A DNA stretch of 64,000 nucleotides, taken from contig OZ241329.1 of the NCBI GenBank assembly GCA_965199825.1, forward strand, positions 2,641,869-2,705,868, written 5' to 3'. The position numbers were made by a program, and so were the translations under genes. Position 1 is the stretch's first letter. Each line of letters opens with the position of its first letter. The notes under the pieces are model-generated. The model was not told the origin of the DNA. It did no database searches and saw nothing but the letters and a program-made list of their open reading frames with translations. This stretch comes from Bdellovibrionales bacterium. Lineage in GTDB: Bacteria > Bdellovibrionota > Bdellovibrionia > Bdellovibrionales > UBA1609. Below, piece by piece: positions 36,668 through 42,667 of the stretch.

Positions 36668-37725
36668 CTTTTTGGAAACAGAAACGTGTCTTTATAACCG
36701 GGCACACCGGATTTAAGGGAAGTTGGCTTTGTTATTGGCTAGCCCTAAAGGGAGCGGTGGTTGGTGGTTACGCACTGGAGCCTAACACCAATCCAAACCT
36801 CTTTGAGCTTTTAAATATTAAAAACTTAATCAAACAAAATCAGTTTGGTGATATCAACAATCTAGAAAGTTTAAAAAAAAGTATTCATCAATTTAAGCCC
36901 GAGATTGTGTTTCACCTTGCAGCACAACCTTTAGTGAGACTGTCGTACGCTCAACCCCTCGACACATTGAAAACAAATATATTGGGCACCGCACATGTGC
37001 TTGAAGCCTTAAGAGATCTGCCAAGTGTTCAGGCGATTGTTGTGATCACAACAGACAAAGTTTATGAAAATCTCGAATGGGATTGGCCTTATAGAGAAAA
37101 TGATCATCTTGGAGGCCACGACGTTTACTCAGCAAGTAAGGCATGTGCAGAAATTGTGACCCAAAGTTATCGTCGTTGCTTTTTTAAAAAGGGCGCAGGC
37201 CTTGCGAGCGTTCGAGCAGGCAATGTGATCGGAGGCGGTGACTGGTCATTAGATCGACTTGTGCCAGATATGATAAGAGCCATTGATGCACGAACTCAGT
37301 TTCAACTTCGAAGTCCAGATTCGATTCGTCCGTGGCAGCATGTGCTCGAGCCTCTTTATGGTTATATGAAAATTGCAGAGCGCTTGTATCTTAAGGATAA
37401 AAATGCAGAACAGGCATTTAATCTCGGACCCCATGAGGCCGACTGCATCTCGGTAGGCAAAATGGTGCAGATTTTTAAAAAGCATTTTTTGGATCAACTC
37501 CAAATTCAACAAATTACATACGCTCAGGCGCCACACGAAGCCCAAATCCTAAAACTTGATTGCTCACGTGCAAAAAATGTTTTGGGACTAACTCCCCGCC
37601 TAAAGATTGAGGATGCAATCCAAATCACCTCGATTTGGTATGACCACTGGATTAAAAAACTGGATCTTACCAAAATCACCCAACAGCAGATTGAAGAGTA
37701 TGAAAGACTTTATGATAACACCTGA
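36664..37725 (+). CDS. rfbG: CDP-glucose 4,6-dehydratase
   Basis: MTFWKQKRVFITGHTGFKGSWL, TTDKVYEN, YSASKACAE, IRPWQHVLEPL. ATGA overlap with the upstream stop. Confidence 0.92.
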   Translation: MTFWKQKRVFITGHTGFKGSWLCYWLALKGAVVGGYALEPNTNPNLFELLNIKNLIKQNQFGDINNLESLKKSIHQFKPEIVFHLAAQPLVRLSYAQPLDTLKTNILGTAHVLEALRDLPSVQAIVVITTDKVYENLEWDWPYRENDHLGGHDVYSASKACAEIVTQSYRRCFFKKGAGLASVRAGNVIGGGDWSLDRLVPDMIRAIDARTQFQLRSPDSIRPWQHVLEPLYGYMKIAERLYLKDKNAEQAFNLGPHEADCISVGKMVQIFKKHFLDQLQIQQITYAQAPHEAQILKLDCSRAKNVLGLTPRLKIEDAIQITSIWYDHWIKKLDLTKITQQQIEEYERLYDNT

Positions 37726-38500
37726 TCTCTCGATTATAATGCCGGCTTATTTAGAAGCCGAAAATTTAACGGGACTGCTGCCGCGACTCAATCAAACTTT
37801 GTTTGATCTAAAGATCAATTTTGAAATTCTTGTGGTCGACACCCAGGAAGCCATGGATCAGACGCCATCGATCTGTAAAAGGTTGAGTGCGCGATACATC
37901 AACCGCTTAAATGGCAATACTTATGGGGATGCGGTTCAGACCGGAATTCAGGATTCGAAAGGCCGCTACGTTGTTTTTATGGATGCCGATGGCTCGCACA
38001 GTCCTGAATTTATAAAAAAACTTTGGGAAGCTCGCAAAAATTTTGATGTGGTGATTGCCTCTCGCTACATCAAGGGCGGCCAAACCGACAATTCTAAAAC
38101 TCTTGTGTTGATGAGTCGAATGGTCAATTGGGGCTATGGTTTTGTACTTGGACTTCGTTGTAAAGACATCTCAAACAGCTTTAAACTTTATGATGGTGAA
38201 AAGTTGCGAGCCCTTCGTTTGTGTTTCAAAAATTTTGATATTGTCGAAGAGATTCTTTACAAACTTATTTTGATCGAACCTAAACTTCGGATTCATGAAA
38301 TCCCATTTCGATTTGAACAAAGAAATTTTGGCACTACAAAACGTCATTTGGTCGCTTTTGTATTTTCTTATGCGGTCTCACTTTTTAAATTAAGATTTAT
38401 CAGTCTTGAGTCCTCAAAACTCAAAAAAGGCCAAACACTCCCCAAAAAATTGGGCACGGACCCCCATAAACAGAAATACCCTCAACCAGATAAGCAATAA
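37700..38500 (+). CDS. GT2 polyprenyl-phosphate monosaccharide synthase (Dpm1/GtrB/ArnC-like)
   Basis: LSIIMPAYLEAENL, the DXD region VFMDADGSHSPEFIKKL, DVVIASRY and DISNSFKLY are the pattern of Dpm1-type enzymes. The start is at 37700 or 37712, overlapping the rfbG end. The last 80 nt overlap the convergent membrane gene. Confidence 0.82.
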   Translation: MKDFMITPDLSIIMPAYLEAENLTGLLPRLNQTLFDLKINFEILVVDTQEAMDQTPSICKRLSARYINRLNGNTYGDAVQTGIQDSKGRYVVFMDADGSHSPEFIKKLWEARKNFDVVIASRYIKGGQTDNSKTLVLMSRMVNWGYGFVLGLRCKDISNSFKLYDGEKLRALRLCFKNFDIVEEILYKLILIEPKLRIHEIPFRFEQRNFGTTKRHLVAFVFSYAVSLFKLRFISLESSKLKKGQTLPKKLGTDPHKQKYPQPDKQ

Positions 38501-39850: not shown

Positions 39851-41249
39851 CCCATGACTTCACTTTGAAACGATTCAACTTTGTTATCAATTCAGGATTT
39901 TTTATTCCAAAGGGCAGATTGTTCCAAACCTCATCACAGTGTTCGGGTGTTGCTTGACCTCGAGCCTCAGCAACCAAATATATTTTGTTTTCTTGACTGA
40001 TTACCTGTGGAAGATCATCGATTGAATTCAAACTTTTTACCTGAGTGGTCGTTTTGGTATAAAACCAAGGCCGTAAGCCCGAGGGAAAAAAGGGATCCTC
40101 ACCCAACACCACATATTTAAAATTTTGTGAGGTTTCATATGCAAATTGATAGAGTGCGAGCTGTCGCTTAGCGGGCGAGACACTCAAATTGAGTAATGTA
40201 ACAAAATTGATGAAGAGGGCCACTTTTACCGCCCACCCTTTACTTAAATAGTGTTGGAGGGGGGTAAATTGGTTGAGCACATAAATGCTGACTAACGGAG
40301 CAATCGTAAAAATAGGAATCAAATATCTGATTTCCTTATGACCAACCAAAATATGGAAAATCAAAAACGGCAGACTCACCCAGGTGATGAGATGATCTTT
40401 TTTAATCCAAAACCCAACAAGTGTGAGCACCAACAAAACTGAACTCAATGGGGGTAAAATCAATGCGGTACTTCTAAAATAATCCCACCACGGATCAACC
40501 CCACCGTTCACCAAGGCCCCATCAATAAAATTGACCCTAAAATAATCCCAAAGAGTAAAGGTCCACTGGCCATAGCCCCAGGAATCAATAAGAAACCCAA
40601 GAGCTTTTGCGATCAACAATCCAACCGCAATGATCAAGGATTGGGGCACATTCACCTTGCGATAATAAATCGCCCAACACCCAAACCCTAAAATCATAAA
40701 TGCCATTTGAAATCGACTCTCAAAAGAGAGTCCTAAAAGTAGTCCGGTAAACAAGCAGGCCCATTTTGCTTTGGGCGAATCTTCAATTTTTAAAATAAAT
40801 AAGCCAAGTGCCCAGATGAAAAATGAAATTCCAAAGTTTTCAGATGAGGTGCGCACATGACTAAAAGGTAAAAACCAAAGCAAAAACAAAATAACAAAAC
40901 TCAGCTTTTGGTCTTGGTCGGTTTTGAACCATTTTTTGGTGGCAATAAAAAAATACCCTGCGGTTAAAAAAGCAAAGGTCGCATTCACCAATCGAAACAG
41001 AAAGCTGGCAACAAATGGATTTTTAAGCTGCAAGATTTTGATAATCGAATAATAGACCGCGGGTTGGAAAAAGGAACGCGCTCTTTCTTGAAATTCCCAA
41101 GGCAAATCCGATCCATTGATCTGACCTAGTTTAAGATTGGCAAATTCGACAACTTGAAAATGCTCATCAAAATTAAAAAATCCCACACTATAAATAACCG
41201 CGAGAAAATGAAACAAAATGGATAGACCCAACATTTGTTTGAGTGTCAT
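39822..41249 (-). CDS. GT-C membrane glycosyltransferase, GT22 (ALG9/PIG-B mannosyltransferase)-like
   Basis: 475 aa and polytopic. The first extracytoplasmic loop carries FNFDEHFQVVEF, matching the (HP)DE-x-FQ-xx-E signature of GT22 enzymes. Confidence 0.68.
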   Translation of the reverse strand: MTLKQMLGLSILFHFLAVIYSVGFFNFDEHFQVVEFANLKLGQINGSDLPWEFQERARSFFQPAVYYSIIKILQLKNPFVASFLFRLVNATFAFLTAGYFFIATKKWFKTDQDQKLSFVILFLLWFLPFSHVRTSSENFGISFFIWALGLFILKIEDSPKAKWACLFTGLLLGLSFESRFQMAFMILGFGCWAIYYRKVNVPQSLIIAVGLLIAKALGFLIDSWGYGQWTFTLWDYFRVNFIDGALVNGGVDPWWDYFRSTALILPPLSSVLLVLTLVGFWIKKDHLITWVSLPFLIFHILVGHKEIRYLIPIFTIAPLVSIYVLNQFTPLQHYLSKGWAVKVALFINFVTLLNLSVSPAKRQLALYQFAYETSQNFKYVVLGEDPFFPSGLRPWFYTKTTTQVKSLNSIDDLPQVISQENKIYLVAEARGQATPEHCDEVWNNLPFGIKNPELITKLNRFKVKSWVVYDCHGKI

Positions 41250-42667
41250 CGAGTAAACCTCTGTTTTTCTAAAAAGCTAGGGCGGTAATTGAGTTGATCA
41301 TCTGGGCACAGATTTTTTTGTGTGACCAATGCATAGGTCTCATTCCAAAAACATAATTTCAATTCTTGAGGCAGAGTGAGTTTTTTAAATTCTTCCATCG
41401 GCCAAAGACCGATGGCCTCTTTATCTTTTGACTGCAGATTTTCTATAATTTCTAAAGAATTGGCGATCAGCGGAGTTCGGTCCCAGTACCACGGAATATC
41501 CGAGGCCAGATCTTCCCACGTCCACTGCTGTTTAAGATCTCCAAAAAAATAAACTTTTTTATTGTCATGCAAAAATTCAAGAGAGTGTTGAAAGGCCCTA
41601 AAAGGATGAGAAATTCCGGAATGAACTTTGATTGGCAAGATCTCAACAATCACAAAGGCACTCAACGCAAACCTAAAAAGCCTTTGAGCAAAAACTTTTG
41701 CGGTGATTCTTATCAATGGTCTTACCAATATTCCAAAACCCATCGCCAACCACGGCAAAACGGGCAAAACATATTGCCCATGATGACGTTCGCTAAATCC
41801 ATATATAAGAGAATGAAAAAGCACCTGGGCCAAAATCAAATAGCCTAACGAATTTTTATGTTTCGCTAATTTAAAAGCTTGATAAAGACCCGTGACCGCC
41901 ACCACATGTCCAAATCGCAAGATCGCTAACGGATACCAAAAAACATTTTTGTTTTTTTCTAAATCATTTTGCTCAACCAATTGGCGATGAAGATATTCTT
42001 TCCAAAACAAAAACCCCTCGGCCTGATAGTGGGCCAAGGTAAAAATCCCAAGTGGGAGGAGCGAGCCCAAAATAAAATTTAGGCTTTTTTTGGGATTGAT
42101 ATAAATTGCCCAAAGTCCAATGGGCAACACACCCAGCGCGCCCACCCCTTTAGCAAGGACCGCACAGCTAAGCGCAAGGCCGCCTAAAAAAAATAAGTTT
42201 TCAACGATCAGCCAAAATCCAAGTAGCGAGAGGGCAACCATTGGCATATCGAGCCAACCACTGCTCATAAAATTCATAAAATCATTAAGAATAAAAAGTC
42301 CAAAGCAACAAACAACAGCGGTCAACTCGTCGTAGAGTTTTCGCATCGAAAAAAAGACACTTGTAAAAACAAGTAGGCCCGAAAAGGTGGCGATCAACCG
42401 AACAGTCTGGGCCGAAATGCCAAAAATTTTAAAAACCAGAGCATCCAGCCACAACACCAAATAAGGATGTTCAACAAAGGGATCAAAAATGCCGGGGCCT
42501 AACCGTGGATGAAAAAGATTTTGACCACTTAAAAAACTTTTGGCCAAGGCGCCGTAGGTCGCCGAGCTAAATCCAAGCCCCGGCTCCCAAAACTTTAAAA
42601 ATGCGGCTAAAAATACCGATCCAAAAATATAAAGGTAAGTTTTATTGAGGTCCTTCCAGTGGATCAT
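41246..42667 (-). CDS. GT-C membrane glycosyltransferase, ArnT/PMT (GT83/GT39)-like
   Basis: 473 aa with about 11 TM spans and a soluble C-terminal domain of about 110 aa. The overall layout is that of ArnT/PMT_2 proteins. The start overlaps the uvrB 3' end, and the stop overlaps the next gene start. Confidence 0.65.

Follow-up and report, generated by a model that had tools for sequence, protein, structure and literature searches.

A ten-gene island with a predicted Gtr-like pathway for extracytoplasmic 3,6-dideoxyhexose transfer in a Bdellovibrionales bacterium

The ten genes located between uvrC and uvrB (32702–42667 of the window, the whole 64,000-nucleotide stretch of DNA analysed) may encode a self-contained pathway, similar to Gtr systems, that glycosylates with a 3,6-dideoxyhexose outside the cytoplasm. 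We infer all of its biochemical steps from the genes and put the probability of this reading slightly above even (about 0.55). A first-pass annotation had described a cluster at 37700–42667 as a Dpm1-type synthase beside three different GT-C-type membrane glycosyltransferases, with mannose as the suggested sugar. An ORF check recovered its five ORFs (GT2, 378-aa, small ORF, 475-aa and 473-aa) where they had been placed, with the 80-nt overlap and the motifs described, and the enzyme classes are supported by matches to PF00535, PF03901 and (marginally) PF13231 and by a model with the GT-C fold. That cluster left out, however, the five sugar-determining genes directly upstream (32702–37725) and thus missed the gene context on which the identity of the sugar depends. 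On the best reading, the donor carries not mannose but tyvelose (3,6-dideoxy-D-mannose) or paratose, linked to polyprenyl phosphate. The island contains:

32702..34024, minus strand: rfbH/ddhC-like PMP-dependent CDP-6-deoxy-4-hexulose 3-dehydrase (E1), by NCBIfam NF011936
34075..34848, plus strand: rfbF/ddhA glucose-1-phosphate cytidylyltransferase, first gene of the operon, by TIGR02623
34830..35651, plus strand: short SDR, CDP-paratose/abequose-synthase-like 4-reductase, by PF01370 and tblastn
35648..36667, plus strand: CDP-tyvelose 2-epimerase (TyvE)-like SDR, by phmmer against PDB
36664..37725, plus strand: rfbG/ddhB CDP-glucose 4,6-dehydratase, by TIGR02622
37700..38500, plus strand: DPMS/GtrB/ArnC-type GT2, predicted polyprenyl-phosphate dideoxyhexose synthase, by PF00535 and PDB matches
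38421..39557, minus strand: 378-aa polytopic protein of an unnamed family, predicted GT-C fold, by AF2 model and Foldseek
39554..39820, minus strand: small 3-TM protein, 88 aa, by hydrophobic segments and fit into the gap
39822..41249, minus strand: GT22 (ALG9/PIG-B-like) GT-C glycosyltransferase, 475 aa, by PF03901
41246..42667, minus strand: ArnT/PMT_2-like GT-C glycosyltransferase, 473 aa, by PF13231 (marginal)

The plus-strand operon runs rfbF–(paratose/abequose-synthase-like SDR)–tyvE–rfbG–GT2, each gene overlapping the next, and rfbH diverges from it 50 nt upstream. The SDR start overlaps the rfbF end (candidate starts at 34830 and 34839 were checked), tyvE and rfbG join by an ATGA overlap, and the GT2 start overlaps the rfbG end by 26 nt. 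GT2 and the 378-aa gene lie tail-to-tail, and their 80-nt overlap (38421–38500) covers only a non-conserved 30-aa tail of a GT2 whose family members end at about KLRF. Translational coupling links the four minus-strand genes, which show 4-nt ATGA overlaps within the string; the 3' end of the ArnT-like gene meets the GT22 start in this way, and its own start overlaps the uvrB end. The small ORF was first listed at 39554–39850 (98 aa from a TTG at 39850). Its most likely start is the ATG at 39820, 1 nt past the GT22 stop, giving an 88-aa protein whose gene fills the space between GT22 and the 378-aa gene exactly and joins the start of the latter by an ATGA overlap. The three hydrophobic segments hold, but an ArnE/F-like role finds no support, as the protein has no homolog in related loci and matches no Pfam (E up to 0.1) or NCBIfam (E up to 0.01) family; its 98-aa form is also absent from the protein collection searched.

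By homology, rfbF, the SDR, tyvE and rfbG together with rfbH make up a CDP-3,6-dideoxyhexose pathway, which would route CDP-glucose to CDP-paratose and CDP-tyvelose, its predicted products. RfbF (TIGR02623, E=2.1e-136) and RfbG (TIGR02622, E=4.3e-144; start checked) exceed their NCBIfam cut-offs, and RfbH, with 563 bits, clears its equivalog cut-off of 423 (NF011936, E=2.9e-169). The short SDR carries PF01370, and its best annotated tblastn match is a Salmonella ‘CDP-paratose synthase’ (30.7% identity, 97% coverage, E=9e-34), with a further match to a ‘CDP-abequose synthase’ (E=1e-23). The TyvE-like SDR matches the TyvE structures of T. atlanticus (9RL0, E=4.5e-142) and S. Typhi (1ORR, E=1.7e-129) over its full length and is closer to the former. 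The E3 gene (RfbI/DdhD) was found neither in the window nor within the cassettes of related loci.

GT2 (266 aa; PF00535, E=7e-22) is, by homology, a DPMS/GtrB/ArnC-type enzyme with both the FMDADGSHSPEF and DISNSFKLY motifs. Its best PDB match is the P. furiosus DPMS (5MLZ, E=1.8e-19, residues 9–231), followed by GtrB (1e-10) and ArnC (1e-6), and the full-length similarity to DPMS takes in the C-terminal interface region. Family members share 55–63% identity across phyla and an invariant DADGSH motif, and plasmid relatives are annotated ‘polyprenol monophosphomannose synthase’. Nonetheless, the translational coupling of GT2 to the CDP-paratose/tyvelose pathway and the position of the family beside tyvE make a CDP-3,6-dideoxyhexose, and not GDP-mannose, its most likely donor. 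We know of no DPMS-type enzyme that accepts a CDP-sugar.

We examined 48 related metagenome loci, 39 of which were informative for tyvE adjacency; in 38 of these, a tyvE-like gene lies within 200 nt of GT2. Of the 31 loci whose upstream flank is 2.1 kb or longer, 26 have an SDR homolog. Among loci of 8 kb or more, roughly half carry RfbF, and the same fraction holds for RfbG and for RfbH (14/27; RfbH is present in L063–L066). A GtrA/DPMS-TM gene (PF04138, E=2e-25) immediately follows GT2 in 17/44 loci, and one family member is a GT2–GtrA fusion (P0242); GT2 in the window lacks both a TM domain and a GtrA partner. A hand count over the 47 analysed loci with GT2 gave 23 that contain PMT_2 (E=2e-12) or GT87 (E=2e-14) GT-C genes, and a protein weakly matching DUF2079 is a neighbour in L066. 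Of the two closest loci, L063 holds the 378-aa homolog, GT22, rfbH, rfbF, SDR, tyvE, rfbG and GT2; L064 adds two PMT_2-like genes to this set, and in L065 (Halobacteriovorax) a PMT_2-like gene sits between tyvE and rfbH. RfbH is 69% (L063) and 68% (L064) identical to its counterparts, the GT22 homologs beside rfbH are 40% and 37% identical, respectively, and 378-aa homologs adjoin the cassette in both loci. Distant ArnT-like relatives lie inside the cassettes of L064 (HMM E=5e-22) and L065 (E=9e-29). Hence, the set is conserved despite rearrangement, L063 and L064 carrying the shared genes in another order. The proposed co-occurrence of the five-gene block is thus partly borne out, by GT2, GT22 and the 378-aa homolog (L063/L064) and by the ArnT-like protein (L064/L065), but not by the small protein.

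The 475-aa protein matches PF03901 (GT22; E=1.1e-25) over residues 12–355 (profile positions 8–362), and D28, E29, H30 and F31 of FDEHFQ, like H304, K305, E306 and R308, are invariant among six homologs. The 473-aa protein scores marginally as ArnT/PMT_2-like in Pfam (PF13231, E=7e-6; 26.8 bits versus a cut-off of 26.1). Homologs annotated as ArnT/GT39 in Bdellovibrio spp. share 34–50% identity with it; in the clade of the window protein, Ser-Ser replaces the first-loop Asp of the family. In other Bdellovibrionota, orthologues of the ArnT-like and GT22 genes are solitary and surrounded by housekeeping genes, so their presence in the island could be partly coincidental. The 378-aa protein, initially considered DUF2029/GT87-like, has no Pfam or NCBIfam match and falls outside the Pfam DUF2029/GT87 family, yet it appears from its predicted fold to be a GT-C member of an undescribed family. 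Its AF2 model (pLDDT 95, pTM 0.93) has only GT-C-fold proteins among its 15 best Foldseek PDB matches (ALG9, ALG6, ALG3, PimE, PIG-U, Gpi14, ALG12, STT3 and Pmt1/2), counting the GPI-transamidase subunit PIG-U, which we take to have this fold; TM-scores to the solved GT-Cs are only 0.4–0.47. A profile search identified 445 relatives among cluster representatives. YPRPYPPG is present, and family members retain its PYPPG core as well as the invariant D32 and P103 and the near-invariant H36, W95, Y102, P104, G105, G176, Y178, D179, H212, R214 and W325. An invariant Asp opens the first extracytoplasmic helix. Profile–profile comparison of the family with the GT22 and ArnT-like families detected no similarity.

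The epimerase subgroup raises the possibility, which we consider unlikely, that a TaTyvE-like enzyme acts on CDP-glucose or a 6-deoxy intermediate and that the lipid-linked sugar derives from CDP-mannose or CDP-6-deoxy-mannose/-glucose. TaTyvE, the closest characterised epimerase, converts CDP-glucose to CDP-mannose (PMC7851689) and is 5-fold better on CDP-6-deoxy-glucose, with no turnover of CDP-3-deoxy-glucose (PMC7851689, PMC13098431). The missing E3 gene is consistent with such a sugar. However, CDP-paratose itself was never tried on TaTyvE, and the RfbH/E1 and 4-reductase conserved with the cassette would both be superfluous if the product were mannose. In a further reading, for which the CDP-mannose made by TaTyvE also speaks, GT2 would be an undecaprenyl-phosphate-mannose synthase serving the three GT-Cs, the ArnT-like protein above all, in mannosylating lipid A. 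This was the link drawn to B. bacteriovorus HD100, where mannose is reported to replace the 1- and 4'-phosphates. Dol-P-Man synthase is indeed the best solved relative of GT2, ArnT-like homologs occur throughout Bdellovibrio, and the ArnT family comprises known lipid A glycosyltransferases such as Francisella FlmK, which adds mannose and GalN (PMC2233673). Yet we judge this reading very improbable. In B. bacteriovorus we did not detect the five-gene block; the one homolog detected there is an ArnT paralogue (34% identical, different subclade) adjoining MBOAT, sulfatase-family, GT17 and WaaL-like genes. We saw no genes for GDP-mannose in the window, GT2 belongs to a CDP-dideoxyhexose operon, and its pairing with tyvE spans many phyla without such lipid A. 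To our knowledge, neither GT22 nor PimE/ALG-like enzymes act as lipid A transferases.

GT2 could instead be an ordinary cytoplasmic tyvelosyl- or paratosyl-transferase whose acceptor is a glycan linked to Und-PP or some other soluble or lipid molecule. The GT-Cs beside it would then draw on different donors, and their proximity would reflect chance or island assembly. The lack of TM helices and a GtrA partner, the solitary ArnT-like and GT22 orthologues, and the location of the L065 and L066 cassettes in O-antigen-like clusters (Wzx, GT4, rml) are consistent with this. We nevertheless regard it as doubtful, given the DPMS similarity through the interface region, the GtrA/DPMS-TM genes directly coupled or fused within the family, the recurrent GT-C neighbours and the retention of GT22 with the 378-aa protein after rearrangement. 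Furthermore, direct transfer by an inverting GT2 would yield a beta-linkage, whereas the tyvelose linkages known from cytoplasmic transferases are alpha.

Under the preferred, dideoxyhexose reading, RfbF, RfbG, RfbH, the paratose-synthase-like SDR and TyvE would convert glucose-1-phosphate to CDP-paratose and CDP-tyvelose, with an E3 reductase for RfbH supplied from elsewhere in the genome. GT2 would load the sugar onto polyprenyl (undecaprenyl) phosphate at the cytoplasmic face, as its homology to DPMS, GtrB and ArnC and the near-obligate tyvE–GT2 pairing suggest. The lipid-linked sugar would then be flipped without the GtrA-like partner usual for the GT2 family and serve as donor at the periplasmic face for GT22 and the 378-aa GT-C, and probably for the ArnT-like enzyme. 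These enzymes may serve separate acceptor positions, or they may work one after another to assemble a short glycan that contains the dideoxyhexose. An envelope glycoconjugate, for example LPS core, O-chain, lipid A or protein, would carry this glycan.

As first proposed, the island fits neither a Wzx/Wzy layout, with no Pfam match to wzx, wzy, wzz or waaL among the ORFs of 150 aa or more in the window, nor a simple Gtr module, which has one GT-C whereas the island has three. Contrary to what had been suggested, several GT-Cs with one donor synthase are not unprecedented: Rhizobium RgtA–D/RgtE and the mycobacterial PPM-dependent enzymes are precedents. Multi-GT-C three-component systems have also been mentioned (PMC11127046). 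If our reading is correct, the donor used by the island would be a lipid-linked form of a rare CDP-derived dideoxy sugar, of a type undescribed for Gtr-like systems, and the three membrane glycosyltransferases, among them the member of an undescribed family, would decorate the envelope from the outside.

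The sugar-nucleotide genes directly upstream of the GT2 synthase overlap into it, and for this reason we take as the functional unit a ten-gene island (32702–42667) flanked by uvrC and uvrB and surrounded by housekeeping genes, including cysS, gltX, carD and recG. The first-pass annotation had delimited a block of five genes (37700–42667), and an ORF check found all five ORFs exactly as described. That scope left out the upstream CDP-sugar genes, to which GT2 is coupled through rfbG. The small 3-TM ORF of the block is present but most likely encodes 88 aa rather than the 98 aa proposed (its ATG lies 1 nt past the GT22 stop), and the 378-aa gene begins with an ATG that overlaps the stop codon of this ORF.

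Genes of the island and their closest matches (the small 3-TM gene is described in the text)
divergent from rfbF, starting 50 nt away: rfbH/E1 (NF011936, 563 bits against a cut-off of 423)
+ strand: rfbF, glucose-1-phosphate cytidylyltransferase (TIGR02623, E = 2e-136)
+ strand: short SDR; best annotated relatives Salmonella CDP-paratose synthase (E = 9e-34), then CDP-abequose synthase
+ strand: tyvE, CDP-tyvelose 2-epimerase (9RL0, E = 4.5e-142; 1ORR, E = 1.7e-129)
+ strand: rfbG, CDP-glucose 4,6-dehydratase (TIGR02622, E = 4e-144)
37700–38500, + strand: GT2 (PF00535, E = 7e-22)
38421–39557, - strand: polytopic protein, 378 aa (neither a Pfam nor an NCBIfam match)
39822–41249, - strand: GT22 protein, 475 aa (PF03901, E = 1.1e-25)
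41246–42667, - strand: ArnT/PMT_2-like protein, 473 aa (PF13231, a marginal 26.8 bits against a cut-off of 26.1)

RfbF, RfbG and RfbH each exceed their NCBIfam equivalog cut-offs, and the SDR 4-reductase is 31% identical to an annotated paratose synthase. By homology, the island is thus predicted to encode a nearly complete CDP-3,6-dideoxyhexose pathway; the E3 reductase (rfbI/ddhD) was not found in the window and may lie elsewhere in the genome. Every junction in the rfbF-SDR-tyvE-rfbG-GT2 series overlaps, with the GT2 start overlapping the rfbG stop. The minus-strand string is also tightly coupled, the ArnT-like and GT22 genes overlapping by ATGA. GT2 and the 378-aa gene are convergent and overlap by 80 nt, a stretch that takes in only a non-conserved basic tail of GT2, since members of its family end ~30 residues sooner. 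Scans for promoters and terminators returned fewer sites than in shuffled sequence. The first-pass annotation saw no wzx, wzy, wzz or waaL, and none of the window ORFs of at least 150 aa has such a Pfam match.

Across the region of the GT-C string (38001–42000), G+C content drops to 0.39 from 0.42–0.45 on either side, and the AT skew is strongly positive. Both features fit the T-rich codons of membrane proteins encoded on the minus strand, and possibly horizontal acquisition. Elsewhere in the window, genes for a ComM/Mg-chelatase-like ATPase and a XerC/D-type tyrosine recombinase (25688–28032) lie ~5 kb upstream of the island, and two convergent, overlapping GT4 genes adjoin one for a 392-aa predicted lipoprotein with no Pfam family (21004–24433). 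A Ser/Gly/Thr-rich secreted protein of 461 aa with no Pfam match (47781–49166) and an 828-aa PA14-domain protein (52953–55439) are possible surface or predation-related proteins.

The closest solved relative of GT2 is the Dol-P-Man synthase of P. furiosus (PfDPMS, 5MLZ; E = 1.8e-19 over residues 9–231), followed by GtrB (1e-10) and ArnC (1e-6), and the similarity extends past the GT-A core. Residues D95-A96-D97 align with the DAD motif of PfDPMS and are invariant across the GT2 family. All NCBIfam equivalog scores fell under the cut-offs and GT2 is, therefore, not an equivalog of any named enzyme. These matches point to a polyisoprenyl-phosphate glycosyltransferase (PI-GT) of the DPMS/GtrB/ArnC type, predicted to transfer a sugar to polyprenyl phosphate. 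The family to which it belongs is very large, with ~230-aa proteins that are 55–63% identical between distant phyla and 78 invariant positions (DADGSH included) in an alignment of nine members. The window protein has no clear TM helix, only one weak segment at 217–235 (hydropathy 1.64 against a threshold of 1.6), and an HMM search up to E = 10 found no GtrA-like ORF or remnant in any frame of the window. At the family level, by contrast, membrane anchoring is evident: a GtrA/DPMS-TM protein (PF04138, E = 2e-25) is encoded directly downstream of GT2 in 17 of 44 loci, and in one homolog (P0242) GT2 and GtrA are fused, as in PfDPMS.

Neighborhoods of the GT2 family, taken from 48 metagenome loci, carry the same sugar genes. 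In 38 of the 39 loci whose flanks are long enough, GT2 has a tyvE-like gene no more than 200 nt away; the paratose-synthase-like SDR is found in 26 of 31, and RfbF, RfbG and RfbH are each encoded in roughly half of those that span 8 kb or more. PMT_2 or GT87 GT-C genes occur in 23 of the 47 GT2-carrying loci analyzed (a hand count from the listing). In gene content, these neighborhoods are typical of a three-component system for extracytoplasmic glycosylation (cf. PMC11127046), whose predicted cargo is tyvelose or paratose. Ten metagenome loci (L050:5520-8063 and nine others) also have, next to the SDR-tyvE-GT2 cassette, a gene for a ~850-aa polytopic membrane protein with no Pfam match, which may represent a further GT-C-like partner family. 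In five loci (L055:1196-3019 and four others) the cassette includes a TPP-dependent, acetolactate-synthase-like enzyme, which hints at variants making a modified or branched sugar. Archaeal-looking neighbors (Tsr3-like and translation-GTPase-like ORFs) flank the cassette in L041, L048, L049 and others, and the tyvE-GT2-GtrA module is probably also present in archaea.

Two loci resemble the island most closely. In L063, whose GT2 is 63% identical to that of the window, genes for a relative of the 378-aa protein (E = 1e-74 with the family HMM) and for a GT22 enzyme (40% identity) precede rfbH, rfbF, SDR, tyvE, rfbG and GT2. L064 repeats this set and adds two PMT_2-like genes, of which one shows detectable similarity to the ArnT-like family of the window. 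The recurrence of this set in another order argues for a functional linkage of the sugar cassette, GT2, GT22 and the 378-aa family. The case for the ArnT-like gene is weaker; an ArnT-related PMT_2-like gene lies between tyvE and rfbH in L065 (Halobacteriovorax sp. HLS), and in L066 (Bacteriovoracaceae) the cassette is adjoined by a DUF2079 membrane protein (weak match). GtrA was found neither in the window nor in L063, L064, L065 and L066. The small 3-TM protein is not GtrA-like and has no counterpart in L063–L066. For the five-gene block delimited initially, we rejected simple synteny because the ArnT-like and GT22 orthologues of other Bdellovibrionota stand alone beside unrelated housekeeping genes. 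What does recur, in L063 and L064, are the homologs of GT2, GT22 and the 378-aa protein.

The 378-aa protein had been labeled DUF2029/GT87-like, yet it has no PF09594 match at E values up to 0.1, and the GT87 Pfam model matches weakly in only 2 of 109 members of its family. Searching 1.84 billion cluster representatives with a profile gathered 445 members. D32 and P103 do not vary in 109 of these sequences, and the PYPPG, GFYD and HxR motifs hardly do. We modeled the protein with AlphaFold from the 109-sequence alignment (pLDDT 95, pTM 0.93), which replaced an earlier 7-sequence model (pLDDT 75) with weak GT-C matches. The 15 best Foldseek matches of the new model in the PDB all have the GT-C fold (probability 0.57–1.00, TM-score 0.29–0.47). 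The glycosyltransferases among them are ALG9, ALG6, ALG3, PimE, Gpi14, ALG12, STT3 and Pmt1/2, with the top TM-scores (0.47) to ALG3 and PimE; the remaining matches are to PIG-U, a GPI-transamidase subunit that also has this fold. The family profile found nothing among PDB sequences. As there is neither a Pfam family nor profile-profile similarity to the GT22 or ArnT-like families, the GT-C assignment is solely structural. The model predicts a polytopic GT-C protein with a conserved Asp (D32) in the first extracytoplasmic loop, from an unnamed family that has no Pfam model. We also considered a Wzy/WaaL/EpsG-type polymerase or ligase, given weak EpsG matches in 5 of the 109 members, and rejected it because neither WaaL nor any SEDS-type structure is among the fold matches. 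By word search the nearest relative of the protein is P0007, whose gene directly follows GH113 and polysaccharide-deacetylase genes (L005:7683-11197), and the family therefore appears to serve other polysaccharide contexts as well.

Of the three GT-C enzymes originally proposed, GT22 is the firm one, with the ArnT-like protein recognized by a marginal score and the 378-aa protein by fold. Sequence places the 475-aa protein firmly in GT22 (91.2 bits against a gathering threshold of 23.8). The F-D28-E29-H30-F31-Q motif of its first extracytoplasmic loop is invariant in six homologs, as is H304-K305-E306-R308. The gene context suggests that its putative donor is a dideoxy-mannose analogue instead of polyprenyl-P-mannose. 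Homologs of the ArnT-like protein in Bdellovibrio spp. (34–50% identity) are annotated as ArnT/GT39 and also carry PF02366. A PDB search returned no solved structure matching the ArnT-like protein or GT22 by sequence. The Bdellovibrio ArnT-like proteins form two clades, with L-D-[TS]-A-T-Y-G or [FVY]-S-S-x-T-Y-G in the first loop (alignment A3). The window protein is in the Ser-Ser clade, whereas the first-loop Asp belongs to the B. bacteriovorus clade; Bdellovibrio sp. KM01 has one protein of each (P0035 and P0017). Nearly invariant in the ArnT-like family are E28 (WEPG) and D140.

These results are consistent with a model in which enzymes identified by homology would synthesize CDP-paratose or CDP-tyvelose, the DPMS-type GT2 would move the sugar onto polyprenyl phosphate, and the lipid-linked sugar would be translocated. 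GT22 and the 378-aa GT-C, probably together with the ArnT-like enzyme, would then transfer the sugar to an envelope acceptor. We assign this reading of the island a probability of about 0.55. More tentatively, and at slightly less than even odds, the window may show how one lineage has adapted a widespread and so far undescribed system of extracytoplasmic dideoxyhexosylation, in which a DPMS-type synthase would convert CDP-tyvelose or CDP-paratose to polyprenyl-phosphate-3,6-dideoxyhexose. In Bdellovibrio-like bacteria, a GT-C team that includes an unrecognized family would use up this donor, and an envelope glycan bearing dideoxyhexose would be assembled wholly outside the cytoplasm without a GtrA flippase. 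The literature searched contains no prior account tying tyvelose or paratose to polyprenyl-phosphate carriers, GtrA or GT-C enzymes.

The identity of the cargo depends in part on the epimerase, for which the T. atlanticus enzyme TaTyvE is the closest characterized relative. TaTyvE makes CDP-mannose from CDP-glucose, with a preference for the 6-deoxy substrate, and leaves CDP-3-deoxy-glucose unreacted (PMC7851689, PMC13098431). This substrate range would suit a 6-deoxy sugar or mannose as the cargo, CDP-paratose not being among the substrates assayed (PMC7851689, PMC13098431). However, the conserved E1 and 4-reductase argue for a dideoxy product, and the alternative is improbable. The same CDP-dideoxyhexose context points away from the mannosylation of lipid A that the first-pass annotation had proposed for the block. 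Nor was the block found in B. bacteriovorus, where the one homolog detected is an ArnT-like paralogue whose neighborhood differs and is more LPS-like: L009:7423-19378 (CP168969.1) encodes the ArnT-like P0033 with MBOAT, two sulfatase-family (EptA/LtaS-like), GT17 and Wzy_C (WaaL-like) proteins. A priori, this region is a better candidate for lipid A/core modification than the window block. No earlier description of Bdellovibrio with ArnT turned up in the literature searched.

A dideoxyhexose-lipid pathway of this kind would operate like the Gtr, Arn, Flm, Rgt and mycobacterial PPM systems, and would be set apart by its donor pathway, by how many GT-C enzymes it has and from which families, and by the new GT-C family. 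Periplasmic glycosylation by GtrA/GtrB/Gtr* was reviewed by Mann and Whitfield in 2016. The three-component periplasmic systems of Shigella and Salmonella are of this GtrA/GtrB/Gtr* type (PMC11127046). Like them, the island has a DPMS/GtrB-type GT2 beside GT-C genes, and the family of its GT2 usually has a GtrA-type partner. As a three-component system, however, the island has the PI-GT and the GT-C but not the GtrA flippase, which is absent from the window and L063–L065. Furthermore, its predicted donor is a CDP-3,6-dideoxyhexose rather than UDP-Glc, UDP-GlcNAc or PRPP, it has three GT-Cs from three families where Gtr systems have one, and it adjoins no visible O-antigen cluster or prophage.

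In Rhizobium, several GT-Cs (RgtA/B/C/D) share one donor, made by RgtE. The Rgt, ArnC/ArnT and FlmF/FlmK systems of lipid A/core modification use one Dpm1-like donor synthase to feed ArnT-family GT-Cs that decorate LPS from the periplasm (Flm: PMC2233673). Only one of the three GT-Cs of the island is ArnT-like, with its marginal Pfam score, the others being GT22 and the new family. The predicted sugar is neutral and dideoxy, unlike GalA, Ara4N, GalN or Man, and no evidence from the island points to a lipid A/core acceptor. The mycobacterial and corynebacterial PPM systems (Ppm1 with PimE and MptA-D) also combine a TM-less Ppm1-like synthase domain with several GT-Cs (PMC3485146, PMC12041525). 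As there, the GT-Cs of the island include an enzyme the size of PimE (~380 aa) with a first-loop Asp, the 378-aa protein, for which PimE ranks with the best structural matches (TM 0.47). However, the latter has no GT87 Pfam match, the organism is Gram-negative and the donor pathway is CDP-based. With the ddh-prt-tyv (rfb) clusters of Salmonella and Yersinia, the island shares homologs of RfbF, RfbG, RfbH, RfbS and TyvE, but the window lacks E3 (rfbI/ddhD), a WbaV-type cytoplasmic transferase and wzx/wzy, and the sugar is predicted to go to a lipid-phosphate carrier. A last parallel is the AglD/AglS-type Dol-P-sugar completion of N-glycans in archaea and the type III DPMS of P. furiosus (5MLZ; PMC12992685), the closest solved relative of GT2. 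The shared family architecture is a catalytic domain with a GtrA-like TM domain, split or fused. The window GT2 differs in having lost its TM partner and in its predicted donor nucleotide, CDP instead of GDP.

3,6-Dideoxyhexoses are classic immunodominant sugars of O-antigens. No route for their addition is known other than cytoplasmic transferases that draw on CDP-sugars. If our reading is correct, a lipid-phosphate-linked 3,6-dideoxyhexose would add a new donor class to the short list for GT-C enzymes, a new GT-C family would be defined, and the poorly understood TaTyvE-like subgroup of epimerases would gain a physiological context. The compact ten-gene cassette could be tested heterologously or used in glycoengineering. 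The search for the lipid A mannosyltransferases would be redirected from the window block to ArnT-like paralogues such as that of B. bacteriovorus L009. For predatory bacteria, these would be genes that shape the surface that the predator shows to prey and to host immunity.
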